From Cyanophora paradoxa CCMP329 (lineage: Eukaryota; Plantae; Glaucophyta): a stretch of 64,000 bases of DNA. Below the pieces are notes generated by a model. It saw only the letters and a program-made list of their open reading frames with translations. It did not search any database and was not told the origin of the DNA. The stretch is taken from positions 1-64,000 of the forward strand of contig QPMI01000412.1 of NCBI GenBank assembly GCA_004431415.1, read 5' to 3'. Of the stretch, positions 1 through 58,727 are shown one piece after another. Each line of letters begins with the position of its first letter. Within the stretch, counting starts at the first letter, position 1. A program made the position numbers and the translations under genes.

Positions 1-704
1 TCTTTCTGTGGAGGTGGTAATTCGTCCTCTTTCTTTTTGGGCTTCCTGTGGAACCGAGGAAATGCGAAATCTTTGACCAGATCCGCTTTATCAACATAAT
101 AGTTCACCGAATAATTTGCAGAAGACCACACAATATATTGGTAAGAGTGCACATACTCCTCAAACATCTTATAGAAATCGTCCTTGTTTCGCATGATATT
201 ATATTCCTCTTCAATGGCTTCGAGTTCTTTGCGATTGCAGCACTCAGGAACACAGCATAATCCGAATTTACTCGAATTGTTGAAGAAATCCTCAGCTTCT
301 GTGTGATGCAGATAATCGAGATTTTCGAATGGCGACCTCTGGAATAAAGAGTCCCACGATTTTGTCTCGGGTCAAATCAATGATTTCGTTGTCTATTAAA
401 TCATCTAAGACCACACACAGGTGATTGACAGGTTCCCTTTTTCGATTTTCTCCTGCCTTTCATCCAGTAATTTGGAAATGTAAGCAGCATCCCATTTCCC
501 GAGTTGCAATGTTGCAACTGCATCCCAGAAATGATTGAAGGACGTCCCACTCACAACAAGAACAGTATCAATCTTTTTCGCATCATGCAGCTGTTTCAAC
601 CAATATTTCACACATTCTGACTTGCCTGTTGCAGACTTTCCTATGAAAAGAGCACGAAATGGTGGGTTATCATCTCAGAGGCACAAACTTTCTAAATCGT
701 TCAT
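1..704 (-). pseudogene. A32/FtsK-family viral genome-packaging ATPase, frameshifted with one in-frame TGA
   Basis: Joining frames gives PPFRALFIGKSATGKSECVKY (Walker A, 618-641), HLCVVLDDLID (Walker B) and YSRGRHSKISIICITQKLRISSTIRVNSDYAVF (GRH, hhhhQ and IRxN motifs typical of A32-like ATPases). Confidence 0.88.
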
Positions 705-2110
705 GGCTTTGTAGATCTTTCTTATTAAAGATAGATAAAAATAACGAAACGTTACTGATAATGGTTTTACAGATTAATGCGACAACCATCTTGTCAACAA
801 TAATGAAACTGTGCATGAGAGCACGAACATTAACTGTGATTGTCTGGTCAGAAGGCATGTATAGAGTGAGGAAAGAGGAGGAGGAGTTCGTGAGATCAAC
901 ATAGCCAGACTGGGCAATGTTGCGAATCGCTTTCTCTCCATCAACACAGAATGGTAGACCACTGAGGACATATTTGTCTGCAACCTTGTCCATTTGAGCA
1001 CTTGAAGGCATCCGCAATTAATTCGGCACCTTTGAGGAGAGGGATGGGCTCAGTAGCATAGAGACGTTGACCATTAATTTCAACAGTGAAAGTAATGTCT
1101 TTTGAGTTAGCATGCGTTTTAGACACTGTGGGAACCATTGAAACCATCAATACCTGCGGCATCACGAACTGAAACAAGAAGACCATAGACAAGACCAGAG
1201 ATCTGTGACAGGTTAATACGATTTGGTTGAGCATTGCCTTTTGCAGCAAATTGACACTGTCAACAAAACCAATATCCAGAGCAGGAATAGCCATACCAGT
1301 GGTCTTCACCTTCTCAATGACAGTAGCAAACAGTTCATCAGAAACATTAATAGCATGCATGTAAAGACGAGGAGAAGTGACTTTAATTTCGGGGTTGTTC
1401 CAGAATTGAAAAGTGGTGATTGTTGACCAACATGGGCAAGAGTAGCATTAGCAGTAGCACCAAGTCCATCATCCTCTGTCTTATCAGCAGCTGTTCCACC
1501 AACAACTGGAAGAGCACGACCACCATAAGAAGTCTCAACATAACCCTTTCCAGCATCCTTGAACCAGACAGTTACCACCATTTCTCCTGAGAGAGCACCA
1601 AGAGGTAGGTAGTGGTTTAGCCATGGGACTGGGATTTCACAAAAATGACCCACCAAGTCGGTTGGTTCCATGGGCAGGGATACCATGAACCATCCCATTG
1701 AACGCTTCTTCTTGGCGAGTTGATCCTCACTGTAATAGATAAGAGGGAAATGAGCAAGGAAATCAGAAGGCACTGAAAGTGTAAGATCCATAGGTGATTT
1801 CAAGTCGAGAGACAGAGCACCAACGGCGAACGTATCCATTGCGAACAAGGTCGGTATCACCAGCAAAAGTGACAGCTGGAAGGTCAAACGCAAGTTCGAG
1901 TTTTTCCACAGAAATTGTAGCGAGGGAGCTTGAAAGAAATCGATTTTCCAGCATTATTCTCGAAAGTGTGCTTGGGTCACAACAACAAGAACTGGCTTCG
2001 ACTGATCAAGACCAAGCATGAGAGAGTTGTCCAGGAAGAACGCCTTGGCTTCTTCCGGGGTTGTTTAGAGCTTCTTTCAGAGAAAGACGTGAGGTCGAAG
2101 TAATATCCAT
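670..2110 (-). pseudogene. Double-jelly-roll major capsid protein, NCLDV-type, frameshifted (~460 aa reconstructed)
   Basis: Consecutive ORF pieces give KLELAFDLPAV...RLEITYGSY...PSDFLAHF, FCEIPVPWLNHYLPLGALSGEMVVTVWF, VEINGQRLY and LPFCVDGE...QSGYVDLTNSSSSFLTL...VNVRALMHSFIIVDK. These follow the order of NCLDV MCP motifs (LxVxLP, IPLPFW..LPLxAL, LNGxDRF, YSFAL..QPSGxxNFS, VYAxNYNxLxI). Confidence 0.75.
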
Positions 2111-2239
2111 GATTATCTCTTTTATTATACTGCAACATAAAAATTCACCAATGATCCTTGATTTTACGCAAAACTCGCAATTACAGGATAAGATGGATGG
2201 GTTTCCGCCATCCTCCTCTTGAAATATTCATACACAGGA

Positions 2240-3152
2240 TCACCAGCAGGTTCTCACCATATCGAATTCGAAGGTGAGGTGCACAGGTTGACCTTCGAAA
2301 TCAATTGGTTCATTAATTGCATTCACAATGTCAACCGAAAATGTGGAGAGCCCAGATTCTTGTTATAGTATTTATAATCGGATGGGCTTCTGTTGAATTA
2401 TAAACGACATGCTCACCATAATCTTTATCAGGAACACGATTTTGGGAAATATCCAGTGAGGAGACCATCACCACATTGCACAAGATCACCCAGCTCTTTT
2501 ACTCTCACAAATAGGACACTATCCCTGGTCTTCTCGGGTTCAAATGAAGATATATACCATGCACCATCGACCCAGTGAAGATACCATCAGTAAGAGTATT
2601 ATAAACCTGAGATTGGATTGGTGTGTTACCATATCTTCCAGGATCAAGACAAGCAGTCGAGCAGAACTCAAAACTCTGAATCTGTGCCTGGGTTGGGTTA
2701 TTGCGGTTGAGAAAGCCAGGTAAACGGTATGGTTGAATGGAATATAACTCGTTTCAGTGTATCATCCATTTGCAACGAATAGCTACTGCTGGTCTCTCAA
2801 TGCAAGTTTGGAGTTATTACATTCACAGTTGTTGGTGGTTTGAATGGGTGTGCTGCGACTTATCACAATGTGTTCCATGATTCATAATCAGCAGCAGGTC
2901 GATCAGTTGGAATACCAGTGCTTCCTGCACCAGAAAGATATTCAGACCAATAAGGTAGATGCATTATCAATTGTCACATCTCCTACTTTGGTTCACCACT
3001 CACCATGGGAATCTGTTATAGAATTCTGCTGAGACCAGTCTCACTGCTCTTACAAATTCATATGTGCTGGGGAGGCGAGCAATAAAACTCGAAGTAGGTC
3101 CATCTCCCGAAATTGTATTGAAAGAGCTCACTTCAATGTAATCCACAGGCAT
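2240..3152 (-). pseudogene. Minor capsid (penton)-like protein 1, frameshifted
   Basis: N-terminus MPVDYIEVSSFNTISGDGPTSSFIARLPSTYEFVRAVRLVSAEF and C-terminus LSTFSVDIVNAINEPIDFEGQPVHLTFEF match the single-jelly-roll penton patterns (..LP..Y.NV..IxLxSAEI; I.L.D..G..hDFxG...hTLEF). Confidence 0.72.
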
Positions 3153-3179
3153 CTTCTTTTATCTATAAACATATATTAA

Positions 3180-3991
3180 ATGATTCGGCTGGTCAATATA
3201 GATAGCAGAGACCGATCAGATGGACAAATAGAAACTCCTACAAAGTTTCACTCACAACCCCAGTGACCAAACCAAGAGAATGTCGAGTTTTGTATGCAGA
3301 GATCCCCAACAGCATCTATAACTCCATTGGAACAGACCACCTTCTTGTCAGATTCTACTACCAAGGCATCTCTGAAACCAGCAGGTCTTCCTTCTCCAAG
3401 TGGTTACATAAATCAAGGTCATTTCGGGTCACCACTCCATATAATTATGGTCTGAATTTCACATTTACTGGGAGCAACAATCTCACATATGCATTCAAGG
3501 TCTACTACAACCTACCTCCTACAAATTGGAGTTTACAGTAATGTTCAATTCGATATGGTTGCATCTACACAGAGATTGGGTAACTTCTTGGTGGAGTTCA
3601 GTGGAGTGGGTGGCTTCCACTGAACAGATTTACGATTTCCCAGAGTCTGCAAGGTCTTTATATGCCCCGAGAATTTCTTTATTTTTCAGGAATACCAATC
3701 ACCCCAAACCATCCCCAATGGGGAATCACATTCACAGGATATGAATTCGAGGCATCTCGCTTAAACTACAAGTTAGAAGCATCCAGATGACAGATATGAA
3801 TGCAGAACAGTATTTATACATGCACATTAAAGAACTCTCCCCATTTGCTACAAACCACAATATTGTCCCAAGATCACAACCACAGAATCAAGGCGATTCT
3901 CAGATTGCAGTTAAGTAAAGATATTGGGCAGTATGTTTATCACAGTGGAGAGCACAGTGAATACATAAAAATAACGATCGAAACCTTGTGA
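3180..3991 (+). pseudogene. Minor capsid (penton)-like protein 2, frameshifted
   Basis: Starts MIRLVNIDSRDRSDG and after a frameshift continues TTPVTKPRECRVLYAEIPNSIYN. The IDSRDR...AEIPN signature is typical of penton-like proteins of PLVs and NCLDVs. Confidence 0.72.
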
Positions 3992-3999
3992 TTAGAGAG

Positions 4000-4379
4000 T
4001 TAACAGTTGAGTTTCGCGATTATTATGGTGATCTTGTAGATATGATGGAATTGACAATCATTCCAGTTAGAGTTCTTGGCTATTGGTAATGATTTAAACG
4101 ATCCTGATAGAAGAACTCCCCATCTGTTCGAAAATATTAAGAATGGACTCTTTCGATCTTCTGTATACCATCGGCGAATTGTCTTATCCCATTTAGCACC
4201 ATTCTTTTTCAAGAATCTACAAAGAGTTGATCTCCTTGTAATTCGCAATCCCATCTCTTGAAAGATCTCATAATGATCTTGTATTCTTTCACAATCAAGA
4301 TGTAAGTCCCATGGAAATTGTGATATTGCTGGTTAATCGGCATGTTTCCTTTACAGCATGATGGGAAATCGTTTGTCAT
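4000..4379 (-). pseudogene. Small viral protein with a DUF5710-like motif, frameshifted
   Basis: FLKKNGAKWDKTIRRWY resembles the AKxxGAxWDxxxKxWY core of DUF5710. Confidence 0.5.
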
Positions 4380-4509
4380 TTTTGGCGAAACGAGAGTATC
4401 TCATGAGATAGATGAGAGAATAACAGGTGTGTTTTCAGGTTGGAGAAATCGGAGAAACATAGAGTATTGCGATTTCCGAGTTAGTTGACACTGAGAAATT
4501 CAGAATTTC

Positions 4510-4980
4510 AGATGGTCTTACTGAAAATGGTCAGATAATCGGGTGTGACACCTATTTAATTGACTGTGACGCCTCTTTAATTGACTGTGACGCTGTGACG
4601 CTGTGACGCCTACTTTCAAACTTTTTAAAATTTTCAAAAATGACAGACTTCTTAAAACAGCCGTCACAGCCGTCACAGGCGTCACACCCAATTAAAAATG
4701 GAATCTCTTTCTCTTACTGAGATATTCAAAAATATATTCTTGTCTTACTGAAATCCGTCTTGTGACACCTCTGACACCTACAAAACACTATCCATTAATC
4801 CACCTTTCCGAAAATGCGAAGTTGTCTTACTGGAAATGGTCTGCAATTTCGCTGTGACACCTAATTTAATTGAGTGTGACGCCTGTGACGCCTGTGACAC
4901 CTACTTTCAAACTTTTTAAAATTTTCAAAAATGACAGACTTCTGAAAACAGGCGTCACAGCCGTCACAGGCGTAACAGAC
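4510..4980. repeat. Two ~170-bp direct repeats, each with convergent TGTGAC/GTCACA arrays around an AT-rich core
   Basis: 4510-4688 and 4822-4980 share (ctgtgacgc)n-ctactttcaaactttttaaaattttcaaaaatgacagacttct-(gtcacag)n. The motif tcttactg recurs six times between 4516 and 5030. Confidence 0.9.
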
Positions 4981-5090
4981 ATTCCACCCCTCTTACTGAC
5001 TTTCTCAAAAACAAAACTATCTCTTACTGAATATCATTTGAATACTACCTGTCACACTTGATCTCAATTATTCTGTTTTATAGAACATAT

Positions 5091-5336
5091 GCAATCTCAT
5101 CGATTGTTTAATTGGACATAATGCAACTCAGTGACAGTTTTTCGATGCAAAAATGTTCATCAGCAATCTCATCGATTGTTTAATTGGACATGATGCAGTT
5201 CCGATATATTCCAATAGAAAATCGCGCAATCTTCTCAATTGTTTAATTGGACATAATGCAACTCTGTGACACTTTTTCGGTGCAAAAATGTAAATCCGCA
5301 ATCCCATCGATTGTTTAATTGGACATAATGCAACTC
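5091..5336. repeat. Four copies of a ~39-bp subterminal repeat (GCAATCTCATCGATTGTTTAATTGGACATAATGCAACTC)
   Basis: Copies start at 5091, 5163, 5226 and 5298. Spacers 1 and 3 resemble each other, giving a dimeric period of ~135 bp. Confidence 0.9.
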
Positions 5337-5668
5337 TGTGACAGTTTTTGCGTTTTCCGATACAAAATGGGCGGTGGTCTACTTCAATACCGATGAGATA
5401 TATCGAGTTTATGCGAATTTATGCGAATTTATGCGAATTAATCGCGATTATATCGTTCTTTAAGTAGTTTAATGTTAATCAATCGAAGTTATATATGTAA
5501 TCGACAAAGAACATAATCTATCGATATAATATCGATTGAATCAATCGTGAATATGCATTAAATTAAACGCGTTTATCATTTTAATACAAAGTTTGCATTA
5601 ATTTATACAAAGTTTGCATAAAAAGTTAAAGAAATTAATCGATAAATATGTATTTTTGTATTAAATTA

Positions 5669-5763
5669 ACACATATTGAAAAACGAATTTAAATCCAGAG
5701 TGAATCGAGATCGCGAAGCGATCGAGATGAACGAGGGATTTAAATTCGTTTTTCAATATGTGT
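5669..5763 (+). other. 95-nt terminal hairpin at the virus/host junction
   Basis: Perfect 28-bp inverted repeat (5669-5696 / 5736-5763) enclosing a symmetric 39-nt core a-GA-gt-GA-atc-GA-gatcgc-GAA-gcgatc-GA-gat-GA-ac-GA-g. Confidence 0.92.
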
Positions 5764-6015
5764 CGGCAGCGCCTGGGCGACGGGGGCCCGAGGTGGGGCG
5801 GCCGCAGGAGGGGCTCTTCGGAGGCCGGCCCGGGGGCCTGGACGGTGCGGGCCTTCGCGCTCCGCATTGCTGGCGGCGAGAGGCCACGGGCACGATTGCA
5901 AGGGGGGAGGGCGCTGTGCATCTCGTGCGGGGGGTACGGCAGCGCCTGGGCGACAGGGCCCGAGGTGGGGCGGGAGGCCTAGGGGCTCTTTGGAGGCCGG
6001 CCTGGAGGCCTGGAG
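5764..6015. repeat. Imperfect GC-rich direct repeat (~75 bp, period 173) flanking the viral end
   Basis: cggcagcgcctgggcgac..gggcccgaggtggggcgg..ggggctctt.ggaggccggcc occurs at 5764 and again at 5937. Confidence 0.75.
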
Positions 6016-7882: not shown

Positions 7883-10254
7883 TGTCTCTAGAGTCTAGAT
7901 TATAGACTAGATCTGCTCGGTACCGGTCTAGCTGGTTCGCTTATCGTCTCTTCTCGATTTGTCTCTGTGTCTTTCCTTTTTTATTGTCGATTCTGGCTTT
8001 TTTTTGTCTCAGAGTCTTGTCTTTCCTCGTGCTCTCGTCTTAGTTATTTTGCTTTTTGTGTCCCTCTGCCCCCGGCCCTGGCCATGGGCAGCCCCCGCAG
8101 TGCTGGCGTCTATAGAGACTGTGGCCGGTAATTCATCAAAACAAAAGGTAGAAATATTAAAGGATATGTCACAGTGTTTGTGGACGTCGCATTGCAATTG
8201 GTACACCACGGCACATGTACCAATGTTCTACTTGACGTGCCCTTCCGACCGATCAGCTAGCTAGCCGAAGATGCTAGCTAGGTGCCGGCCATGGGTCGCT
8301 CAATATGGGAGGTTCGCCTGAGTGGGGGAGACATGGTTTTCGCAGATATCGATAGCCGTAAACTTTGAAACCATGCATATGTCTCCCCCACTCAGGCCAA
8401 CCCTTGCGCACCCTTCCCTCCCCCACCGCCCGACCCCGCCCGCCTCGAGCCCGCCTTTTAAAGGGCAAGCTTAAGACGCGACCCCCCCTCTCCCCTCCCC
8501 CATGGCCACATGCACGTTAAGCCCTTCCCCCCCTTCCTCACCCCCTCCCCTCCTCCCCCCTCCCCCCCCCCCCCCCCCCGCCCCGGTCCCTCTCTGCACG
8601 TTCTCCATATGCATCAATTTCCTCAACCGACCCCACCCCCATCCCCCACCGGTACCCCCATCTCCCCACCACCCCATCCTCCGGCCTCGAGCTCCTTTAA
8701 AACTTTCCGAAGGCGCCTTTACTAGTTAATTTGTGGAACATGAAAAGCGACCCCGGACCGCCCCCGGCGGCCCCTGGCCATGGCCTGTGTGCATGCCGTG
8801 CCCCTGACGCCGACCGTTGAACGGCGCGGCGCGGCTCGGCTCCGATCGCGAGGGTTCTAGATCTCCGACCCGATTTTCGAGCTCCAATTGACGACCGAGC
8901 CCGTGGACCGCGGGCCCAATCGGTCGTACGAATAAGAGTACCGTAGTCGCCCAATCGGTCTATGATACCGTAGTAACGAGTACTCATTCATAAAAAGGTC
9001 AATTCGTAACAATGATGGCCCAGTGGACTTAAGGTTCTATTTTCTTTTTGCAATTGCAATCGACTCGGCGATCTCGATTGCAAAGTTGCATATGCGCATG
9101 CATGCGCAATTAATATCGGACTCGATGCTGTGTACACGTATACGTACATGTTAACGTTGGATAATCTTCGGAATGAAGATGCATATATATGAACTTTCGG
9201 AAGCGTCAATGTCGATATCGAAGCTGAAGGCCTTCCCCGAAGCCCAAGGCCGATATCGATATCGATATGAGAAGATTTGCATTAGCACACAACAACAGCT
9301 ACTAGCCATAGGGGTTTCGGAATTCACATTGCCCAACATAAACCTCTCCGACTGGGTTCTCAGTCTATCCGGCCGCGGGGACCGTCGAGCGCTGCGTTAA
9401 ATCCGATCTACCTTCGTATATCACGGCGATTATAGCCGGAGTTCTATCTAAAGTTGAGGCTACGGCCCGCCTTAAGCTTGCCGTACGACGTCGACCGTCC
9501 GACGGTCTACAGGAGGTGCTCGTTCGCGAAGAAATGGGCGCCCGCCTCGACCTCGATGGCCGCGAGCCCAGCGTCGTCCATCGCGGCGGGGCCATCGGAG
9601 TAAGCGTACGCGTCGGCGTCCGCTGCCTCCTCCTGGTCCGGGGGGGGGGGGGGGGGGTCGGCCTCAGCACTTCGAAGAAGGCCCAGCTTTGGGGGGGAAG
9701 GAGCGGAGCAGGCACCGAGGTGGGGTCGGCGTCGGCGCTGTACTCGTACACGCGCACGACGTTCGCGTCCTCGTCGAGCGCCTTGAGCGTCTGCACACGG
9801 CGCGCGCGCGCGCGATTAGTGATCATAAGTCAGCTTGCAATCCCCGGAACTTCGAATTCAGAAGCATCGATATCATGGCATAGATCGGACCGTATACGTA
9901 TGTAATCTATATATCTATAATCTATCGTACCAGGTCGCCATTCTGAAGCACAGCGATGGTGTTGGCATCGACCAGCCGTGTGATCCTCGGGCTGCATGCG
10001 GGCCGCGCGTATATATCAGTAACTCAAAAACAGAAGAGTACTACAGCTAGATATCATATATGTGCACAGTTGCAGCTTGATCGCGACAGCGCACCAAGAG
10101 TAAGAGAACAAGCCGGCAGCGCTAGAACTGCCCGTGGCTGGCAGACTCGTGAAGGTGCAGGCTGACAGTGGCGAGCCAGAGCCCGGCGGCGAGGTCGGCG
10201 ACCTAATCGGAAGCGACGCTCGCGATCGCTCAGTTATGATCATGTGCGCGCTCG

Positions 10255-12452: not shown

Positions 12453-12772
12453 GGCTGAAATCCGGTAGGGCGTTTTTGGCCAAAGCTTAGCTAATCGCAG
12501 GTACTTAGCGCGTTTGCAGAGGTACCATTACATCATTACGGAACATGTTAGAGGTTTTACAAGCTAGCGAAGTGCGATTTGGTAACTTTCTTGGCGCCGG
12601 TATGGCCATACCGGCGCCAAGGCCAACTTCGCTAGCTTCAAGCAAACCTCTACGATGCTGCTCCTAGTAATTCGCTAGGAGTCGGACTAGTCCGAGTCGG
12701 AACTAAGCTAGCGACGAAAGCTTAATTATATAAGCTAAAACCGCTTAAGAAATCCCCTACCGGATTTCAGCC
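12453..12772. mobile_element. PIF/Harbinger-like foldback MITE
   Basis: Perfect TIR GGCTGAAATCCGGTAGGG, 3-bp TSD TCA on both sides, and a central perfect 32-nt palindrome cttggcgccggtatggccataccggcgccaag (12590-12621). Confidence 0.8.
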
Positions 12773-12832: not shown

Positions 12833-14480
12833 ATTTTTTTTTGAGAGACTACGGTGGGGCGAACCCCCCGTAGGTAGTGATATTAAAGACAACAAAGCAA
12901 TCACAAATCAAAGATACAGTAAACTAGCACAAAATATATACAGAATCAAGAGGGATCACGAGAAGGGACACGATCAGAAGAACGCAAAAGATAAGGAGAA
13001 CGAGCACGAGGAGAAGGAGTAGAAGAGCTCAAGGGCGTCGATGCAGAAGTACTAGTCACACTAGAACGACGAGGAGCACGGGGACGCAGCAAATAAGGAG
13101 AACGAGCACGAGGAACTACAGTCGAAGACGAAGATCTAGACGAAGACGACAAGACAGAGCTAACAGCAGAACTAGAAGACGTAGTCGCAGGAGGCAAAGG
13201 CGGTAGAACAGTAGGAGAGGCGAAACGTAGGACACCACTAGAGGGAAAGTCGAAGCTGGCGGAGTGTCTAAACGGAATCGAGATTGTAGAGTTGGTAAAA
13301 CAATGGACGGCTGAAGACTAATCTGAGGAACTGGGGACGACACGAGGAAAGGGCAGAGCTCGGGTGCAGACTCGGAATCGGCAGTATAAGAGGAGGGGCG
13401 AAACGCAAGCCAGTAGTGACAGGGAAGGCAGACGATGGGGCTGAACCAGGCGGGAGAGGCAAATATAGCGAAGTAGAAGAGAGAGAAGGGTACACACGAG
13501 GAACGTCACCATACACAAAATACTCGCTGCCAAAAACTATACGGTCTGACGGTCGCTGAAGATAAAGAGGCGGAACTGCCTGAGGGCTAACAGTGAGAGA
13601 TGGAGGAGGAAGAGGCAGAGCTAACGACAAAGGGAACGGAATCAAAGGTACAGGGAAGGCATGGAATACACGAGGAACTGGAAGGTGGAGGGGCCAGTGC
13701 TCCTAACTAACATCGATGAAGCATCTGATGGAGGTGACGGCAAAACAACTGAGGGTAAACTAAGTTGAGGTGAAGCGAAGATTGATACAAGACTATCATG
13801 AATCAAAGGGGGCCATGCAGGAACCGGCGGGCGAGGTGGATCTGGCGGGACAGCCAGAGGGGAAGCCGAAGGTACAGGAGAGGAAAGCCGCAGGCGCCGA
13901 GACACATGGACAGGGGACGGATCGGCATCGGGAGGCAAGGTTGAATTCGACGGAGACCGGGGGCGGCGGATTCGTGAAACGGAAGGTATCAGAGAAGGAC
14001 TAGGGGGGGGCAGGGAAGTACGGAGCCGCTGAGCAGGTGGCGACGGTGAGGGTGCAGGGGAGCGAATCCGTCGCAAAGTCGGAACAGGCTGACGGGGCTC
14101 GGCATATGTAGCCGCAGCTGCAGGAGCTGGAGCAAGCACTGGGGGTGCCGGATCCGGAGACTGGAGGCGGGGGCGCTGGGCAGGAGGCACAGGATCTGGA
14201 GGATTCTCTGAACTAGAGGGGGTTCGAGGTCGGCGAACGCCACGGGCATTAGCAGGATGTTTATCAGCCCGAACATGACGGTCACGATCAGCAGAAGACT
14301 GAAAGTTCTTCCCACAAATAGGGCATATTAATGTGGAGGCAGAAGCGGCGCTAGCGCTAGCATCGGCAGACGAGCTCAAACGAGAACTCGAGGGAGCCGG
14401 GACCGAAGCTGTATCAGCGCTAGCAGATGGCCTCGCAATGTGCTGAACTTGAGGATTCACGCCGACGCCATTAACTGTAG
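12833..14480 (-). mobile_element. Non-autonomous non-LTR retrotransposon derivative (N-terminal C2H2 zinc finger, no RT visible)
   Basis: The minus strand ends CTACGGGGGG-TTCG-CCCCACCGTAG-tctctc-A10. ORF 13642-14460 has CPICGKNFQSSADRDRHVRADKH followed by Pro/Ser-rich sequence. The element appears inserted in a deleted copy of the 11681 MITE. Confidence 0.65.
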
Positions 14481-23700: not shown

Positions 23701-26700
23701 CCCTTTCCGACTCGTGGATCGTGATGAACGAGCGGCCTTTGAATGGGGGTCCGGGAAACGGGGTGCGTTCCCGAGGAAAATTGGAATGCGCGGGCTACCC
23801 CGCCCAATTTTCGTATTGCAGTACCTGGAGGGCCGATGGATCGACCCGCCCGGAGGTCAGTTCGCTTTCTACATTACTGGAGATCAGATCGTCCAGATAA
23901 GGTGATTTTAATTACTTCGTGGATAACGCACATAAATAGCTATAGGGACTTGCCGGGTTGCGTGCAGCTCACAGGTACCGGTGGCGCGCAGGAAGCGGAA
24001 CTCTTACCAGAGCGGAATGGCGGGCGACGTCAGCGGCACGATTACGTACGGGGCCCGCGGGACCCTCTCGTCGTGGCCTTCGGTCTGCACCGCAAGAGCC
24101 TCCAGATATATATGGAATACGTTTGCATTCTGATTGTTATTGCTGATTTTGTGCGCAGGTGGCGGCTGCCGTGTACAAGGATGGGACGCTGTTCATCGTC
24201 CGTGAGGTACACGAGCCGAGCACGACGAGGGCGTTTTCGTTCGCTTCGGCGGAGAGCCCTCGGCCGCGCTTCTCAAACGAGAGACGACTGTCAAGGAGCA
24301 ACGAGCGGGCGCCGACCTCGCAGCTGCTCCGATTCACTGCGGTCGATTCGCAGAGTTTCACACTATCCTCCGTTGCGTGGTCGGTGGTTATTGCAGCGTT
24401 TCCTGGTGCTGAATCGAACTATCCAATTTAGAGTTCTCGATACGTAATTGTTCTCTTTTTGACACAGCGCTTCTTAAACTTGCAGCGAACATTCTCAGCG
24501 CCCACGCGCTCGACGACTTCTCCTCCGATCGAGTTTTTGGTTACAACCTCGAGACGAATCCTGCCATGCCCTTCGCGGAGTCCCCTGTCGTCGTTTTCGT
24601 CGTTTCTGAGCCGTACGTGCTACAGCTCACTCATCTGTAGTTTGATACTCCAGCTTAGTTGTGGGTTTGACTAATTTGAAGTTGTCAGGCCGACGGTCGT
24701 AAAGATGCACACGCGTTGTGCGGCGGCGACTCGCTGGAACTGGGAGGGCGCTCTGTTCAACCAGTCCATCGCTTCCACAGACCTCTGCAAGCCTCTTCCC
24801 CCAGGCGCGCGCGCTCCTGTACACGCCTTCGCAAGACAATTAAATGCCGTTCCTCGAGTCTGACAATCGAGCGCGGGCATGCGCAGGACGGTACTCTCAG
24901 CGCGAGGGCCTCCTATTGGACACAGACGCCTCTCTATGCCCACCGGGTTTCTACAGCGGAACAGGGAGCACGAGCTGCACAGCGTGTCCGCAGGGGTGAG
25001 AACACACTTCCCGAACGTGGTGGACTTGGGGGAAGCGATATTGATGCATAATGGCATTGCACCCGGGCCCGCAGCACATGGTCAACGAACGGGTCCTCGT
25101 CTTGCTACGGTACGCTTTGCTCTTAAAGCTTGGGATTTCGGCTGTTTTAGCACGAATGCTGAAGACATCATAACCGCAGAATGCCCGCAGCAGACTTCGT
25201 CCCTGGATCCGGAGCAGCCGTGCAAACCTTGCGCCGCCGATCGCTTCACGCTAGGGTCGAAGTGGACAGACGCTTGCCTGCCATGGTGCGCATTAATATC
25301 GTATCGATCGCGATATAGTATCTTGAAATCCAATGCACGCGCGTCGCAACTTTCGATTCGATTTCGATGTCAGTTTTGCAGCTGCTGATCGCCATACCCT
25401 AAGTCCGGCAGGGACGTACCTTTACAGCAGCCCAAACAACCCAGGGGGGCGATCCTGCTGGGCGTGCCCAGCTGACCGGTGGTCCCTTCGCGGAGCGGCT
25501 GTTTGCAATACATGTCCGCAACGTCTCGGATCCCGGAAGTCAGCTGCAGACTCTAATTGCAGCCGTGCGCGCGCAGGTCCCCCGGGGTACACTCGTAATG
25601 CGGGCTCAACCGGTTGCGAGCCTTGCCTAGCTGGACAGTACCAGCCGAAAAATGAATCCAGCTGTACTAAATGTCCTGCTGGTGCGAAACATTACTCGCT
25701 CTCAAAATTAAGTACAGATTTAAGTTAAATCCACGCTTGCCAAATTCCTCACTCTCTATCCCGCACTCGCACTCGAAGGAACATGGAGCCCGGAGGGTCG
25801 GAATGGAAGCTGCTTAACCTGCCCCGCCGTGCGCACGCATCAGTCAAGTTTGCGCGGCAAAGCTGAAGTCTGCTTTTCTTTTGATCTAATCTGCGCTCCG
25901 TGATCTGCAGGGCCAAATCACTACTGCTCAGCGCGACGGATGCAGGGCGTGTCCGCTAGGGTACTACGTCGTCAATGGCACTGATGAGTGCACTTTTTGC
26001 CCCATCGACACCATGTGCAACGGGCAAGCCTTTGAAGGGAGCCCCGTTGCGTGCGGTCCGGGATTTGTCTCCGGTCCCGACCGGCTGCAGTGTATTGCGG
26101 TGAGCACGTGCACCGCAATCGACTGCGCAATTAATATGGTCTCAAGCGAGTTTATAACTGAGCTATGCACAACAGTGTCCGGCGGGAACGTACGAAAAGA
26201 GCCCGGGAGTGTGCGAAAGCTGTCCGCTCAACACCGTGGCGGCCCTTTCTGGGGCGCGGAACTGCACCGCGTGCCCAACGGGATCGTTTTCGTCTGCCGA
26301 CTCGCGGTTCTGTTTCTTATGCGGGCCCGGTGAGCCTGCACTCTAGACCTAAATCTCCATCGAACGAAATGCAGCGAATTGCGGAACTGACTGGGCCGGG
26401 GGCGGATATCGATCACGCCAGGCACCTTTCGAAACGCCAGCAGCAAGTCTTGCGTCCCCGTGGAGGCGGTAAGCGTCGCGCCTGCGGGCGCTAACACGAG
26501 CGAGGTCTGTCGCGCCGGCACGATTCCAAACGTGGAAAGGAGCGAGTGCGTCTTTGGACCGCGCTTCAATTACAAATGAATTCAAATATAAAATTCAAGC
26601 GTTCATATATATATGATCATGGATGAATACTCATCGTTGATGCAGGTGCGTGCTTTGTCCGAAAGGCACGTTTGCAGAAGGAAGCGACTGCCAAAGGTGC

Positions 26701-29700
26701 ATTGCTTCGTCCCGAAAAGCCCCAATTCGCAATGCCAGTGCTAAGCTGGTCTGTTCTGGGTCCAGGTGTCCGCTCAACACGTTTACGTCCGAGGTGGGCT
26801 CGAGAACGTGCTCGATTTGTGCGCCTGGGTACATCAGCGCGCCAGACATGCAGTCATGCCTTCCTTGCCCCGATGGTGCCAGCCTTTAATTTGGTATCGA
26901 ATGTGCAAGCCTGCGCATGGTTTGATCAGATCTGATCGCGAGCTCAGGCTACTATCGATCGGCTTTGATGGTGACGTGCGAGCGCGTGAAGGAGGGCACC
27001 GTCGCCCCTGCGGCGTCCTCGAATTACACCGCATGCGAGCCGGGGCACATCCCGAACCTATTGAGCTCCTCCAGTGTCTGCGTGCCGTGCCCAAAAGGTG
27101 ACGAGCTGCCCATCCGCTCGCGGTAGCGCATTAGAGCGACCAGCCGCTGACTCGCGCATTTCGTGCAATGAAACGTGAAGGGAGCTACAAAAGCAATGCA
27201 ACTACATGCAGTAGGTATGGCATGCGCATGATTGACCATGTACACTAGTGCTCCCGCCTGGCCTCGAGCTTACATGTTAAGCTCGCGATCGAAGCAATAC
27301 TAATAATAAGAGCTGATAAATCAATCTTCCTCAATGTCAAGCTCTAAGGCCGCGTGCCTCCTCGAAACTTTGATCAAATTCGGCCTTCGAATTCTCTTTC
27401 ATGATCGATTGCAACCATGCAGGTGTGCGCTGAATACCGTAGCTCCGTTTCTTGGGAGTGCAAACTGCACGGCGTGCGAACCTGGACACGTGGCGGATGC
27501 GAGCGCTCAGGTTCGTGCGTGTGGCGATGACAATCTCGAGTCTTTGTTCGTACGGTTTTCCGACTCTTTCTGATGAATACACGCGTCACAGATCTGCCTT
27601 CCTTGTCTAGCGGGCTCTTACCGCGCGGCGAACATGTCCGTGTGCCAGCCCACGCCGCCCAAGAGTGTCTCTGGCCCTGGCCAGGCCCAGCCCACGTTCT
27701 GCACGCCTGGCACGGTCCCAAACGGTCCCCAAACCGAGTGCATCGCCTGCGGGAAGGGAAGCTACGAGAACGACGGAGTTTGCGAGACGTAAGCGCCATT
27801 TCATATTCGAATTCCCAGATTCGTTTCGCTTGTCTATCGCTGATCTAAATTGTTCTGCAGGTGCCCCCACAATTATGTGTCCTCGGAAGAGGGATCCACC
27901 GCTTGCACAGCGTGCGCTCCCGGCAGCGTCGCCGCGGCGGACCAGCAGAAGTGCGTCCCGTGTGGGGCTGGGGCCTACCGGCCCGCGAATGTTTCGGACT
28001 GCATTCCCGTGCCGCCGAGCGCCGTCGCTTTAGCTGGGAGCGCGATGTACGAGATCTGCGCCAACGGTTCCGTTCCGAATGGTCCTAGGTCGGAGTGCAT
28101 TCTGTGTCGCCCAGGCACGTATACCCCAATTCAATGCAATTGTTACACCCGTTCAGTTACGCAATCAAGCAGGAACCTACCATGTGAACGAGACTTGCCT
28201 TCCCTGCCAAGTGAACAGCTTTGCCGCCCTCCCTGGAAGCACCTCCTGCGAAGCATGCGGGGAAGGCTCCGTGTCGACTGCGGACGGGCAGAAGTGCAGT
28301 CGTGCGCTCCTTTGTATATGTATATTTCGCACGTGCACCTCGAGCTCGAGCTCGTTCACATCCAGTGTCTGACCTACGCGTGTCGACAGCTTGCTTAGGG
28401 GGCTTCTTCAGGCACGATCCCATGGCGGAGTGTTTGGAGGCGCCGTGGGGAGCGGTCGCGCCTCCTGGCTCCCGCAACTACACCGCTTGCGGGCCAGGAA
28501 CCACCCCCAATCTCGAGAGGACGTCGTGCATTCCATGCGGTCCTGGTGCGTCCAATTTTAATTATATATAAAAAGCAAATCGATTTCCTGAATCAAAAAA
28601 GGCACGATCGAAATCGAGCACCAGTGCCGGACGTGCATCGGCAACACGTACGCACCCACAGCTGGTCTCACCGCTTGCCTCGAGTGGTTCGTGATCGGCT
28701 ATTAGAAACCGGCTATACTGGATTCATAAGCTCATGATCATATATATGATTGACCGCCACCCCTCGAACAGCGCGCCAGGAATGGTGGTAGACCCAGACA
28801 GGCAGGGCTGTTCGTGCGTCGCAATTGCGAACGTCGCAGCGGCCATCCGCGTGTTGCTTCCGAGATGAACGCTTCGCAAACTCACATTCCCCCAGCCCTT
28901 GTCCGGCAGGCATGTTCCGATCGGCGAAAATGGCCTCCTGCTCAGAAGTGCGCATAATTGGATAGACTCGAGGGAATTCGAAGCCCCATTCCCCGACACT
29001 AAATTTTTGTGCGAGCAGTGCCTGGCTGGATATATTTCGAAACCGGGCTCTGCCACCTGCGTCCCATGGTGCGCGAGCCCGTTGCTTCAAGCTTAAGTGA
29101 ACAAATCAAATCTCTGAGCGCTAGCCCCTTTTTGCATCGGGCAGCGATCCGGGGACGGAGGCAAGAAAGGGCACGACGTGCGATCTCTGTCGCGCGGGAT
29201 TCTTCTGCGTTCCGCCCTCTGCTGCCTTGCCCTGTCCGGATGGTTTCATCAGCGCCGCTGGAGCTTCCTCCTGCATCGCATGCCCACGCGGGTACATTAG
29301 CAATGCAGACCGGTGCGCCTGCTCCCAAGCATCTCGAAGTCGGACATCCGAAATTTTTTAAGTTGATTGCGATGCTCCCGCCTAGAACCCAGTGTCGTGA
29401 GTGCGGGGGAGGCACGTTCCAGCCAAACGGCTCGGTGCGGCTGCCTGCGCGCGCCGCCGCAAATCGGGCTAATTGTACAACATGCAGAATTCATGTCTTC
29501 CTTGTAAAGCGGTACCCAATTTAATGCAAGCTTGGACTTCCAGCTGCGGACCTCTCACTGTTCTTCAGGGCACATGGGCGCCCCCTGCTACCTCGGACCA
29601 ATGCCTTCCATGTACCCCGGGATCTTTCCCGTCCAACGACTCCACCATGTGCATCCCGTGCGTCGTTATTGAATCTCTGTACACGTTCGGCGCCACGGCC

Positions 29701-36939: not shown

Positions 36940-38421
36940 CTACCCAAACAACGGAACCAACACGCTGAATACTGCAATCATAATAGCGACGTTAAGTATG
37001 ATTGCACGTGCGGACTCGAAGCCTTCGTAGATTAGGCTCCGACCGTTTTCCTCGTAGGCTTCGCGAACGCCGGCCCCAAAGAAGGCGGGGCCGAGGGTGC
37101 GCTCCCACCAGCCGAGCTGCCGCTCGAGGGCGCATGTGGCCCACTCGGGCGCGAGCCGCGTGAAGGGCGAGAGGACGTAGGCGAGCACCGATGCCTGGAC
37201 CAGGGCCAAGAGCGTGATAGGGCCAAGGTGCGGCCACCGCCAGGGAAAGAGGCGCGCATTGGCGAGCCAGAGGGCGACGAAGGCGGCGACGGCGAGCGCG
37301 CAGTACGCCGCGAGGACGCCGCCGAGCTGGAGCACGAGGAGAAGGGACAGGGGCACATGCTTGAGGCTCGCGAGCCGCCGGCCGGCCTCGCCGCGGACGA
37401 GGGCCCAGGTCGACGGCTCAGCGGGACCCGGAGCGGGCGAGGCGGGGGTAGCGGCTTGCGCCGGCTCGCTGCGATCGAGCGACGGAGCCGGGGAGACGAC
37501 GACAAACCCGGGGCGGTCGCGATCGTCCCCCGCTTTCGGCGCCGCAGCTGCAGCTGCAGCCTTCGACGCCGACTCGGCAGCGCCGGCAGAGGGGAGGGCA
37601 GGAGACAGCGGCTGAGGCCGGGTCGACGTCCCTTCCGCTTCTGCGCCGGCCCCGGAGCGGCCCTCGAGCGCCAGGTCGGTCTGCGCGCGCCCAAATGTCG
37701 GACCGAATGCTAAGGCCCGGGCCCGCGCCGCCGCCGCCGCCCCCGGCGCTGACCTCGGGGTCGTAGAGGACGGGGCTCGCGGCGGCGCGGAACGCGGCCT
37801 CACACTCGGGGCCCACCTCCCGCCACCGCGCCTGCCCGCCCCGCCCGCGGCCGCGCCGCCCTCCCGCGTGAGGCCTACGGGCGATACGAAGTGGGGGGTG
37901 GGGAGGGGGGTACGGGGGCACCCGAATGCGGCGAAGGGAGAGGCTCAAGTACGGCCCCTCGGCCCCCGAGAGGCCCTCTGCGTCCGCAGTGAGCGGTTAT
38001 TCGCGCGTCTAAGGCGCGCGCGCGCCCCACGGACCGCAGACGGGGCAGATCTCCGCCGCGCCTCCCGCCCGCCGGCGCTCCAGGCACGTCTTGTGAAAGC
38101 TGCGGAAATGCGATTCCGAGTAAATAAAGCATCGCCGGCGCCTGAAACGATGCGCGAGAACGACCGCACTTGTGCCCGCAGAAGAGGTACCCGTCCGAGG
38201 GGCGCGAGACCGGATCGAAGCAGATCGCGCAGAGGTCTCCAGTGTACCCCGGCTCGTGCCGCAGTTTCTGCAGCTCCTGCACGGACCAACAGAACTGTCA
38301 CGAACTTCAATCCGATCTGAGATTCGATCGCCCTCACCTCCAGGGCGCGAGCGGCGGGGGGTACGGAGTGCTCTGGCGGGTCCTGGCGATCAGCTCGCGA
38401 CCCCCTGGGCCAGGGCCACAT
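36940..38421 (-). CDS. RING-H2 E3 ligase-like protein with C-terminal TM helices, copy 1 (multi-exon)
   Basis: MWPWPRG..ALE|ELQKLRHEPGYTGDLCAICFDPVSRPSDGYLFCGH|..FHKTCLERRRAGGAAEICPVC (C3H2C3 spacing); hydrophobic C-terminus. Confidence 0.75.
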
Positions 38422-38536
38422 CCATGGCCAGCGCTTCGCGGCCCAGAGTCCCGCCAGAAAAGCGAGAGCTGCGCGCGAAATTCGACTTCAGGCCGAGCTT
38501 AAGCCTTCAAATTCTACGAAAGCCCGCTGCGCTTGA

Positions 38537-39508
38537 TCATGAGGGTGAGCGGGTTCCGCGCACCGAGTGCAAGAGCGTAGAAGGCGGGTCGCTGAATGGC
38601 AGTTGCGATTGCAGCTGCGGACGATGCGGCCCGCTCGAGAAGCTCCGGCGCGCGGGCAGCCGCAAGGCCCGCAACTGCTTTGGAATCAGCCGCGCGCGGA
38701 CGTGGATTTTAGATGCAAGCTTAAGATCTAGAGAAGCTGCCGGCACCTTCGCTGCCGCTCGCCGCGGCGGCAGGCCGCTCGAAGCGTACGAGAGCCGCGA
38801 GAAACGCCGTTGCAGCCCCTAGACCTGCAGCCGCCGCCGCCGCTCGATGAGCACGTGGGCGCGTAAATTGATCTGCGTGTCAGAAAGATGAGTTCGAGTA
38901 CAGGCCACGGCAATTCACTGGCGCGCGAATAAATCTCTTGCGCGCGATTTAATTTGAATTCCTCGAACCAAGTACTCTGCAAACCTTGATCGCGGCGAGC
39001 TTCTTCATGGCGAGCTCGAGGTTTAGGAGGCTTCGCGATCGAAGTGCATGTGCAGCTGCTCGAGGCTTCGTCAGAGTCTGCATGATCATGACGACTCGGC
39101 GAGCGCGAGATCTAGAAGATGGCGCATGCATAAGGGCGCATTCGTCGCACCGCGGGCTTCCTTCGTCCTCCTCCTGCATCGTTGCAAGATTGAACTCCGC
39201 GTCAAGATCATGAGCGTCGCCCGCGTGGCGATGCGCTGCAGGCGACTGCGGCTGCTTTTCTGCAGCTGGCACGAAATCGAAACGCGTGGGCACGCTGACT
39301 ATCTGCGGCCGCGGCCGCACGCTCCATGAGAGCGTCGCCCCAGAGCGACGCTGCTTCAGTTCCCCCAGTCGGCAGAACGCCGCGACGCGCCGCCGAGGCC
39401 AACGCAGCGCAAGAAGGCTATCCGCGCTTTCGGCTCTTTCCGCGATGGCTTGCGACCAGCTCGCTAAAGGCGCTGCAAAGACCGCGCCGTTGCCTGCGGC
39501 GAGCATGG
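38537..39508 (-). CDS. Hypothetical protein between the RING gene and VPS15 (copy 1 of 3; others ~46030-46987 minus and ~56117-57079 plus)
   Basis: Conserved blocks MLAAGNGAVF.APLASWSQ..RWPRRR and VVMIMQTLTKPRAA..LELAMK are present in all three duplicated units. Exon structure is unclear. Confidence 0.35.
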
Positions 39509-39780
39509 CGGGCCCGGGGCGCGGCTGGCCGAACTCGGAAAGGCCCGGAAGTTGGGGCTGAAACACAGGGACGGGTAGAGGGCCACGCTTCGTTCGCAGG
39601 CCGCTCAAGTCACATCCTCGCCTCTCCGCCCCTCTCGCGCTCGAGGATCCGGAGCTCGTCAGTCGAGAAGAGCGGCACGGGCTCGCTCCCTAGCCGCGGG
39701 GTAGGCGCGCGGTCGTGTGACCCCAAAAGCTCTAGCGGCCCGCGTCCCGGCGGAGGGCGCGCAGTCGCAAGCGCGGCGCG

Positions 39781-42700
39781 ATGGGGGCGGCAACGAGCGT
39801 CTCCGCGCCGGCGATGGCGGCGCAGGGCGACGTGCACCTGCTCGGCATGACCGGCCTCACCTTCGTCGACCACCTCGGGGGCAGCCGCTTCATGAAGACG
39901 ATCGAGGCGATCCACGACGAGGGCCACGTCGTCGTGAAGGTGTACGCGAAGCGCGACGCCATCGCCGCCCGCACTAGGAGCGCCTCGCGGTGCGCGTGCG
40001 GCCCGCCGCGCGTACGGGGCCGGGCCGGGCCGGCGCGCGAGGCCGACGGCGAAGCGGGCGCGCGCAGAGATCAAGAGGCTGCTGCCGCTGGACGAGTGCC
40101 CGAACGTGATGCCATTCCAGCGGACCGTGGAGACGGAGAAGGCGGCGTACCTCTTCCGGCAGCACTTCGCCTGCAACCTGCGCGACCGCCTCGTGTCCGC
40201 CCCGCCCGCCCGCCCGCCCGCCCGCCCGCCGCACCGCCGCGCACCGCCGCGGCCGACCGGGCGGGTGGGCGCAGGACGCGGCCGTTCCTGCTGGCGCTGG
40301 AGAAGCGCTGGATCGCGTTCCAGCTGCTCTCGGCGCTGGAGCAGATGCACGGGCGGGGCGTGTGCCACGGGGACGTCAAGCCGGAGAACGTGCTCCTGAC
40401 GACGTGGGACTGGGTCGTGCTGGCGGACGCGGCGCCCTACAAGCCGGCGCTGCTGCCCGAGGACCCGCCCTCCGACTTCTCGTTCTTCTTCGACGCTGCC
40501 GGCTCCCGCCGCTGCTGCCTCGCCCCGGAGCGATTCCTCCCCGCCCCGCACGCCCTAGCCCCCCCCCCCCCTCCTCCCCCTCCCCCTCGCCGTCCTCCAC
40601 GGCCCCGGCAGCGTCCGCGGGGGCCGGGGCGGCGGCGCTGACGCCGGCGATGGACGTGTTCGGGGCCGGCTGCGCGCTGGCGGAGCTGCTGCTCGACGGG
40701 GCGCCCCTCTTCGACCTCGGCGCGCTCCTCCGCTACCGCCGCGGCGAGGGCCCCGGGCCCGGCCCCGCCCTCGCCCGCATCCCCGACGCGCCCCTGCGCG
40801 CCCTCGTGGCGCATATGACGCAGCGCGACCCCGCCGCGCGCCTCCCCGCCGCCGCCTACCTCCTCCCGGGGCCGTGGAGGGCGCCGGCGGCGCCTTCCCG
40901 CCCTGCTTCCCGCGCCTGCACGCCTTCCTCGCCGGGCTCCGCCCCCTCGACCCGGATTCGCGTGTGGCGGCCCTCGCCCGCGCCCTGCCCGACCTCCTCG
41001 CGCTGGAGGGGCCCGCCGAGTGGCCCCCGCCGCCGCCGCCGCCCCCGCCGCCCTCCTCGCGCGCCGCCCGCGCCGCCGCGCCGGCCGCCCTCGCGGAGGA
41101 GGTGCGCGCCCTCGCCCGCGACTTCGAGCGCTGGCGCGCCGCCCTCGCCTCGCCCCCGGTCCGCGCCTCCCGCCCCCCCGCGCCCCCGCCCCGCCCCTTC
41201 GCCCCTCACCCTTCTGCGCAGGCCGGCGTGCGGAGCCCGCCGCCGGGCGGCCCGCCGCCGCCGCCGGCGATCGCCTCGCCCGGCCCCTCCACGCCCTCCA
41301 CGGCCCGCGCCCGGCCCGTCGTCCCTGAGCCCCGGGAGGCCCCGCGGCCCTCGCCCCCCGAGTCCCCCGCCACGCCGCCGCGGCCGGGCAACGGGTCGCT
41401 GCTCCAGCCCCAGCCGGGGGCGGGCGGGTCGGGCCCGGGCCCGGCGCGGGGCACGCCGGCGGCGATCCTCGCCGGCGCACTATGCGCCGCCTTCCGGAGC
41501 CTGCGCCTGCCCGAGTCGAAGCTGCGCGTTCTCGACCTCATGCTTCAGGCGCGCGAGCGCCGGCCCCGCCCCGCTCCACCCGCCGATCTGATCTGATCTG
41601 ATCTGATCTGATCTGAGCCGGCCTCAGATCTCGCCGGCGGTGGAGGACGAGGTCCGGCTCCAGCGGCTCGTGCCCTTCGCCGCGACGGCCCTCACCGACG
41701 CCGCGCCCCGCGTCCGCGCCGCCGCCCTCCGCACCCTCACCGCCCTCGTCCGCCCCACCCCGCCCCTCCCGCCCCCATCCCGCCCCGCCCCAGCTGAGCT
41801 CGGCGGGAACCAGCTGGGGGCGGTGGGGGCGGTGCCGGAAGGGGAGGGGCCCCTCTTCGCCGAGTACGTCCTACCCGCCCTCTCCTCCCTCGCCGCCGAC
41901 CCCGACGAGGTGCCGTACCCCCCTCCCCCACCCTCTCCCACCCCCCCTCCGACCCCCTCCGAGCAGCTGGTGCGAGTGGAGTACGCGGCGAGGCTGGCGG
42001 ACCTCGCCGACACCGCCCGCCGCTTCCTCGACACCTCCCTCGTGCGCCCCGCCCTTGGCGTATCTTCTTCTTTCCTTTGATCGGCCCGCGCAGCTCGCCC
42101 GGCACCGCGCCGCCGCCGCCGCCGCCGCCGCTGCCGCCGCCGCCGCCGCGGGGGCCATGGCACGGGCGCCATCCCTCGCCCCGCTCGCCTCGCCGGCCGG
42201 GAGCCCGCCCCCACGGGCGAGTCTCCCCGCGGCCGCCCCCACGTCGCCGGCGAGGACGGGGCCGGGTCCGGCCCCGGGGCCCCCGCCCCTCTCGTACGAC
42301 TCGGAGCTCCATGGGCTCCAAGAGGCCTTCTCGCGGTGCGCGCGGCCCCGCCCTGCTTTAGCCTTCGCCCAAGCTCGAGCTTCCTGCTGAGGGCCGCTTC
42401 GCCCCCGCGCAGGCTGGTGATGGATATGATGTCGCGGGACGCGCCCAGCGCCGTCCGTACCGTCCTCCTCGCCGTGAGCACAGCACGCCCTCAGCATGCC
42501 CCGCCGTCCTTAAGCTTCCCGTCGGGCGCCGACGGCCGCGGCCTTGCGCGCAGGAGATGGACCGGCTGTGCGTGATGCTGGGGCGCGAGCGCGCCGCCAA
42601 CGTCGCCCTCCCGCTCCTCATCTCCACCCTCAACGACCGCGACCCCCAGGCGCGCCCCCTCAAGATCTAATCTGATCTGACCTGACCTGACCTGATCTGA

Positions 42701-43583
42701 TTTCTCCCCCCGGCAGCTGCGGCGGGGCTTCTTCCGGGCGGCGCAGGGGATGGCTTGCTTCTTGGGCCCGGCGGCCCTCCACGAGTTCCTCCTCCCCTGC
42801 ATCCTCCAGGCCCGCCCGCCCGCCCGCCCCCAGCGCCCTCAAATCGAATTTGATCCGCGTCTTAAAACTTCCCACGCGCCCGCAGGCCTTCCAGGACGCG
42901 GAGGAGGGGCTGCTGGCTGCCGCCCTCGCCGCGCTCGCCGCCCTCTGCCGCCTCGAGCTCGTCCGCCCCGCCCCGCTCTGCGCCGAGGTCGCCCCGCGGG
43001 CGGCGCCCCTCCTCCTCTACCCGGGCCTCACCGTCCGCCGCGAGGCGGCGCGCCTCCTCGCGACGGCGGCGGCGCTCCTCGGCCCCGCCGACGCCTTCTG
43101 CGGCCTGCTGCCCGTCCTGCGGCCCGTCCTCGCGCGCGAGCCGCCCCGCCTCGAGAGCCCCGAGGCGATCCTCGCCTCCCTACCGCCCCCCGTGCTGCTC
43201 TTTCCCTTCTGCCCTCCCCTTTATTTGCTCCTCGCCCCTCACGCGTCGTCCGCGCAGGTCTCCCGAGAGGCCTTCGCCCGCGCCGTCGTCGCCGCCGCCG
43301 CCGCCGTGCGCCCCGTCCCTTCCTCGCCTGACCTGCCCGCCCCCTCGCCCGCCTGACCACTTTGCAGGCGGCGGCTCCGCCGACGGAGCAGCGGCGCCCG
43401 TCCGAGTCGGCCGCGGGCGCCACGCCGGCCGGCTTCTCCCCCGCGCTGGCCTCCCTGCGCTCCCTCGACCCCGCTGAGCGCTCCCCCCCCCCTCTCCGCC
43501 TCGGCGCCCATCGCCATGCTGCTCCGGCCGGGGCCCGCGCCGCGCGGCCCGGCCTCATCGCGCCCCTCGTCGGCAGCCCGCCC
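39781..43583 (+). pseudogene. VPS15: 3'-truncated VPS15/PIK3R4 copy (pseudokinase plus HEAT, no WD40)
   Basis: MGAATS..LGGSRFMKTIEAIHDEGHVVVKVY, HGDVKPENVLLTTWDWVVLADAAPYKP..FFFDAAGSRRCCLAPERF, HEAT exons (LNDRDPQ|LRRGFF, LQ|AFQDAEE). Identity to the minus-strand copy stops at ~43583. Confidence 0.85.
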
Positions 43584-58630: not shown

Positions 58631-58727
58631 GATCCAGCTCGTCGTAGGCTTCGCGATAACATTAACACTCTTGCTTACTCTTGATTTGATTGTTGCAATG
58701 GTCAGCGTAGTTGCTCTGTTTTCCTAG
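57185..58727 (+). CDS. RING-H2/TM protein, copy 3 (start ATG appears changed to AGG, exon 1 shortened)
   Basis: ttgAGGtggccttggccc here versus ATGtggccctggccc in copies 1 and 2. RING exons are intact; the TM tail is the most divergent of the three. Confidence 0.65.

Follow-up and report, generated by a model that had tools for sequence, protein, structure and literature searches.

The window, which is the whole stretch of 64,000 nucleotides of Cyanophora paradoxa DNA analysed here, opens inside an inserted element that ends at position 5763 (Table 1). The GC content is approximately 0.40 over positions 1–5763 versus 0.50–0.85 in the remainder, with a step from approximately 0.2–0.4 to 0.76 at 5763/5764. 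The element is known here from positions 1–5763 alone; its other end, replicase, and integrase lie outside the window.

Table 1. Features of the element, its terminal palindrome, and the adjoining host DNA (window coordinates).
Feature	Positions	Strand	Basis or remark
P-loop ATPase gene, frameshifted; likely packaging ATPase	3..674	-	Walker A GKSATGKS, Walker-B-like stretch
Double jelly-roll major capsid protein gene, frameshifted	670..2110	-	Similarity to P0001
Minor-capsid (penton)-like gene, frameshifted	3171..4089	+	Motifs in translation
291-bp direct repeat, TGTGAC clusters in both orientations	4515..5060	.	Sequence
135-bp direct repeat, 9-bp motif x4	5091..5345	.	Sequence
Subterminal very AT-rich stretch, GC 0.19–0.27; differs among copies	5401..5668	.	
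Terminal fold-back palindrome	5669..5763	+	G-A-rich strand is +, 3' end at 5763
Stem, inner arm (perfect 28 bp)	5669..5696	+	Base-by-base pairing
Upper part: three tandem 5'-GA/5'-GA steps and one A.G amid 2, 3, and 6 normal pairs	5697..5735	+	
GCGAAGC mini-hairpin tip	5713..5719	+	Pairing
Stem, outer arm; final base is the element end	5736..5763	+	Pairing and short-read contigs
Host repeat rich in GC; 173-bp unit, followed from 5937 by a partial second copy	5764..6014	.	Insertion site

The capsid gene is 37–58% identical, in four pieces over nearly its whole length, to the C. paradoxa protein P0001, the sole relative found in protein searches. Comparison of P0001 with double jelly-roll capsid clusters gave values of 0.97–0.98, with 12–18% of cluster members carrying Capsid_N/Capsid_NCLDV and a recognition value below the bar of the tool. 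A Pfam search of the capsid gene returned no match, and the BLASTP comparison of P0001 with an NCLDV capsid was not significant. Two structure models of the capsid were too poor to trust (pLDDT 34 and 40); the top Foldseek match from such a model was an adintovirus capsid (E 1.5e-4), and the search of the PDB gave nothing at E 0.001, with the PBCV-1 capsid at rank 3. No relatives of the capsid and ATPase pieces or of P0001 were confirmed in viral contigs, and an atlas search with a window fragment gave no usable match.

The ATPase gene matched weak P-loop families only (E 0.03–0.09). The gene at 3171–4089, a candidate penton or minor-capsid gene by its motifs, had no Pfam or PHROG matches. A coding-like frameshifted stretch lies between it and the capsid gene (2100–3150, plus strand), and a short ORF facing it (4000–4332, minus strand) gave a weak DUF5710 match (E 6e-4) below the cut-off; paralogy between the two plus-strand gene regions was not detectable. 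Many of the frame breaks in the element genes are probably assembly errors, because gaps of a single base account for most differences between the window and the short-read contigs described below (for example, 0 substitutions and 5 gaps in 570 letters).

Two features of a Polinton-like virus (PLV) are present, a double jelly-roll capsid and insertion in many low-GC copies into a eukaryotic genome; positions 1–5763 are likely an endogenous PLV. Capsid look-alikes of the Capsid_N/NCLDV kind point away from virophages; neither a virophage-type maturation protease nor a Rep-type nickase (Rep/NS1) was seen in the available 5.7 kb. Of the noncoding features, the 291-bp repeat is likely the inner part of a terminal inverted repeat, the 9-bp motifs are candidate protein-binding iterons, and the subterminal AT-rich stretch contains a 10-bp repeat (x3.6, 5404–5439).

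The last 95 nt of the element form a hairpin. Base-by-base pairing about position 5716 reproduced the order of stem and mismatches given in the initial annotation: above the 28 Watson–Crick pairs (5669–5696/5736–5763) follow A.G, G.A, A.G, 2 pairs, G.A/A.G, 3 pairs, G.A/A.G, 6 pairs, and a GAA loop (5715–5717). As had been noted there, all mismatches are purine–purine (7/7 are G.A or A.G), and the arms are equal at 46 nt each. The plus strand has a folding energy of −34.3 kcal/mol (z −13.75), and 0/200 shuffled sequences folded as well. No other perfect stem in the window reaches 28 bp (the runner-up has 19 bp), and the stem sequence is present solely as the two arms of the hairpin. No Rfam families were found within the window. 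At a loose end before 5665, the palindrome seemed to continue for 4 bases into one flank; this was set aside as a possible product of chance or alignment overhang.

The claim that folding is strand-specific was not borne out by the nearest-neighbour model. The complementary T-C strand forms the 28-bp stem too, and its folding energy of −32.9 kcal/mol differs by only 1.4 kcal/mol from that of the G-A strand; in the same model, folding the upper part by itself leaves the outer G-A steps unpaired. Since the model barely separates the strands, strand specificity would follow from the chemistry of G.A pairs; the model is not known to treat sheared G.A steps in DNA by a term of their own. Pyrimidine–GA–purine context favours sheared pairing, and 5/6 GA dinucleotides of the hairpin are in this context.

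Fourteen DNA-type or unlabelled sequencing runs of one organism contain approximately half of the words of positions 1–5900, and no RNA runs were found among the listed runs sharing the element's words. We compared contigs from 5 of the 24 listed runs (X1–X4, then X1–X3 and X5), which may be one strain, and one of which may be the source of the window. A 92-nt contig of X1 shows 0 differences from positions 5671–5762, and identical pieces are present in X2, X3, and X5. The depth of the hairpin contigs versus host contigs was 2683 versus 46 in X1, 1875 versus 14.5 in X2, 4600–4858 versus 64 in X3, and 3256 versus 50 in X5; the core is letter-identical at approximately 60–75 times the host depth in three runs, although contig depth is GC-biased and is no true copy number. 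The simple reading of these depths is that dozens of identical copies of the hairpin exist. The hairpin and its GA mismatches are thus kept in other copies, with an identical core at high depth in 4/4 runs, and the hairpin is linked to viral genes, with the capsid and ATPase genes in the same element within 1–5763.

No variant positions at 1% were listed within 5669–5763. X1 has 243 variant places at 5% in 7000 nt, from which approximately 3 would be expected per 95 nt, so this is modest evidence of constancy. Over the 68 bases inward of the hairpin, alternative sequences occur together with one insertion and two substitutions; in the hairpin itself, a few low-depth contigs (3.7–70) have a single change or gap. 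The hairpin contig is approximately twice as deep as the identical ATPase contig (2683/1351 in X1, 4858/2451 in X3, 1875/819 in X2) but only approximately 1.3–1.4 times as deep as the capsid contig in X1 and X3; the twofold depth is a hint that the hairpin stands at both ends of the element. Strand-switch joints, as expected of a flop form or an end-to-end dimer, did not occur among the listed joints, where words of 31 letters make them nearly invisible across a 28-bp stem. At 5696, contigs of X1 and X5 are interrupted, and the one contig of X2 that crosses this position unbroken speaks weakly against a frequent flop form.

A second version of the palindrome occurs in all four runs, at loose ends behind 5698 (X1) and before 5733 (X1, X2, X3, X5). 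Read by hand from these loose ends, it keeps the 28-bp stem and has a 29-nt interior of three tandem GCGAAGC units. Folded by hand, this interior has equal arms, 6 normal pairs, 7 purine–purine pairs (G.A, A.A, G.G), and a GAA loop, and it keeps the A.G and G.A steps at its base; it could alternatively form three mini-hairpins. The pairing partly follows from the repetition of GCGAAGC itself, and either fold is available to the purine strand only. Although it is read from loose ends, the second version is the best evidence for selection on structure rather than on sequence.

The final base of the hairpin had been taken to coincide with the host junction, and different host flanks do join at 5763 in the short-read contigs. 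The junction of the window is present in X1 and X5 (5737–5793; depth 87 and 84) in contigs with 27 and 30 letters on either side, just below the 31-letter rule of the tool. In a 570-nt contig of X5, 520 other letters are attached at 5763; a further flank follows behind 5764 in X2, and in X2, X3, and X5 the stem is met by a host-like flank of 255 nt. Some of these flanks may represent the same insertion; among the loose ends (24/50) and pieces (32/210) listed, the outer end has at least two host flanks and probably three or four. Virus-free copies of the 173-bp host repeat also exist in the short-read contigs.

The host part of the window resembles eukaryotic DNA that is repetitive and contains short exons. 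Kinase or ephrin-receptor-like matches on short stretches were found for 3 of the 50 ORFs scanned, together with one duplicate kinase match. A host segment of approximately 7.5 kb with a kinase exon is repeated directly and inverted (36950–47120 and 52197–58720, 80–98% identity), and 25333–28398 contains short exons with cysteine-rich ephrin-receptor-like repeats. Host hairpins at 8316–8397 and 12561–12638, with perfect stems of 19 and 16 bp, are possibly ends of other mobile elements, and the strongly purine-skewed stretch 13000–14460 (AT skew 0.49, GC skew 0.33) is possibly a decayed element.

The design of the hairpin had no counterpart in the viral sequences compared. The 20-mer of the tip had 0 matches in viral contigs, the arms were absent from 38/38 metagenome loci with this 20-mer, and a G-A zipper enclosed by a long perfect stem was found in 0/82 viral loci (74 found with the architecture pattern and 8 with the triple-GCGAAGC pattern). 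The best look-alike (L057/L121) was rejected since its hairpin is internal, lying where a giant-virus capsid gene ends. At L121:4543–4605, this GCGAAGC-tipped hairpin with purine mismatches overlaps the stop of the capsid gene and is perhaps a transcript-end hairpin; the mimivirus rule places hairpins at transcript ends. Eight viral contigs, two of them labelled GVMAG, have runs of GCGAAGC repeats in intergenic-looking DNA outside long perfect stems (L113–L120), with more than a dozen units each in L113 and L117.

The initial annotation had pointed to poxviruses, asfarviruses, and parvoviruses; the nearest precedent is the terminal palindromes of PLVs and virophages of Halocafeteria, not those of a poxvirus or parvovirus. 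In the available text of that study, terminal palindromes are described in endogenous virophages and PLV subtype 4 of Halocafeteria seosinensis with a hairpin-priming model; they adjoin target duplications, are linked to non-pPolB replicases and rve integrases, and were searched for with ≤4 mismatches (bioRxiv 10.64898/2026.07.28.741278). The likeness lies in a palindrome at the extreme end of an integrated PLV-type element and in the model; the figured subtype has 52-nt palindromes, and the text outside the supplements is without mismatch chemistry, strand polarity, or a second version. Autonomous parvoviruses share a mismatched 3' fold-back, with some ends in a single orientation (PMC8242256, in part), whereas here the element is a dsDNA, double jelly-roll one, and the hairpin is an unbranched, equal-armed rod. 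Typical Streptomyces telomeres share 3'-strand hairpins, sheared G:A closure, and position at the end of a linear replicon, but they are bacterial, consist of several short palindromes, are patched by protein priming, and do not belong to an integrated virus (PMC4513846, sections available). The flip/flop telomeres of poxviruses are likewise incompletely paired terminal hairpins, but with extra-helical loops needed for packaging (PMC8956199, in part) instead of equal arms and purine–purine pairs.

The tip motif is identical to the GCGAAGC mini-hairpin known from single-stranded phage and plasmid origins and resistant to nucleases; the available text of the review reports no eukaryotic virus end and has 0 occurrences of "parvovirus" (PMC13037366). 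Within the accessible parts of PMC12220804, PMC10120064, and PMC8547959, no hairpin or palindrome mentions were found, nor were the stem and tip motifs in the supplement text of PMC12220804; there is a single legend mention in the part of 10.64898/2026.10.13.758929 available, and PMC11296320, to the same extent, mentions poxvirus hairpins only. Terminal palindromes in PLVs and a hairpin-priming model have thus already been reported, and a PLV end with a G.A zipper was not found in print among the matches listed, in a literature coverage that leaves subscription journals outside.

The initial annotation had read the palindrome as an opened, covalently closed viral telomere or rolling-hairpin origin or as the recognition site of a nicking or integration enzyme. 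The viral-terminus part of this reading stands, given the element end, gene linkage, many copies, host junction, and recurrence of the purine design; covalent closure and recognition by a nicking enzyme would be further, putative properties. We favour, at a probability of roughly 0.55, the reading that the palindrome forms the conserved terminus of a many-copy integrated element, likely a PLV, and that in free viral DNA the G-A strand likely folds at its 3' end into a predicted continuous rod and primes or seals replication. A self-priming or sealing hairpin is favoured because the G-A strand is the plus strand, whose 3' end is the element end, as self-priming needs, and the fold sets 5763 on 5669.

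Once freed by excision or by strand displacement, the last 95 nt at the 3' end would fold, and within the helix the GCGAAGC tip and the sheared G.A steps would stack and withstand nucleases. The 3'-OH at 5763, paired to 5669, would prime inward copying to give a hairpin-closed duplex, a substrate for rolling-hairpin copying by a helicase-type replicase that needs no protein primer. The end would then be opened to a full duplex, and an rve-type integrase would join the final base to host DNA; the mismatches would make the strands unequal, such that a single orientation works as an end. These enzymatic steps are suggested because glaucophyte and Halocafeteria PLVs encode such enzymes. By hand count, the 156 complete glaucophyte PLVs in Table S6 of PMC12220804 include 85 with an rve integrase, 0 with a tyrosine recombinase, 49 with pPolB, and 40 with a D5-type domain.

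An assembly or read fold-back artefact, in line with which many single-base indels separate the window from the short-read contigs within the element, carries practically no weight: as the initial annotation had expected, it is refuted by identical short-read contigs in 4/4 runs and by arms that are imperfect copies of each other. It is very improbable, and already largely refuted, that the palindrome is a functionless by-product of fold-back repair at the element end that later decayed, even if accidental annealing is raised by the Halocafeteria authors (bioRxiv 10.64898/2026.07.28.741278, in part). Decay of a perfect palindrome would leave seven G.A/A.G mismatches with p of 3.6e-6 to 2.8e-8, and many identical copies and a second all-purine version speak against this origin.

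The fold might act as a protein-binding cap instead of a primer, guarding a 3' single-stranded end and recruiting a terminal-protein priming or packaging complex; we consider this unlikely, though it has analogues in the telomeres of Streptomyces (Tap/Tpg) and vaccinia (I1). The 5' end of the element terminus opens with a short AC repeat, which would suit protein priming too by the slide-back rule. In the sources as far as available, the 3' overhang hairpins of Streptomyces are closed by sheared G:A pairs and bound by Tap (PMC4513846), pPolB is present in 49/156 glaucophyte PLVs (PMC12220804), and the vaccinia mismatches are needed for maturation, with a role in packaging and not in DNA synthesis, which counts against self-priming (PMC8956199). 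Yet a 28-bp stem that pairs the final base would probably hide the template end that protein priming needs, and the Halocafeteria palindromes described in the text available occur preferentially with non-pPolB elements (bioRxiv 10.64898/2026.07.28.741278). It is rather improbable that the hairpin would mainly be a site on single-stranded DNA recognised by an excision or integration enzyme, with no role in priming. Junctions at the final paired base would suit such a site, as would the HUH endonucleases that, in the accessible text, all mriyaviruses, small relatives with similar capsids, encode (PMC11253617). No HUH endonuclease gene was seen in the available 5.7 kb, however. HUH- or IS200-like enzymes discriminate strands via an imperfect palindrome, whereas an rve integrase acts on duplex ends, and it is as rve that the integrase of glaucophyte PLVs is annotated in the part of PMC12220804 available.

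The replication mode of most PLVs is stated as unknown in the literature available. The hairpin-priming idea has so far been based on the mere presence of palindromes; for the self-priming terminus that we favour, the two versions add a direction, the 3' strand. One stem with different all-purine interiors makes the model testable with short oligonucleotides and existing long reads. Such ends could be overlooked or cut short by screens that allow ≤4 mismatches and may therefore be commoner than reported.

More tentatively, an algal PLV lineage may have dropped protein priming for strand-specific, non-Watson–Crick telomeres built of sheared purine zippers and GCGAAGC tips, selected for structure and used in rolling-hairpin replication self-primed on one strand. 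If true, a double jelly-roll dsDNA virus would have converged on the kind of ends found in parvoviruses and Streptomyces, and the second version would be a natural genome end made of three tandem mini-hairpins.
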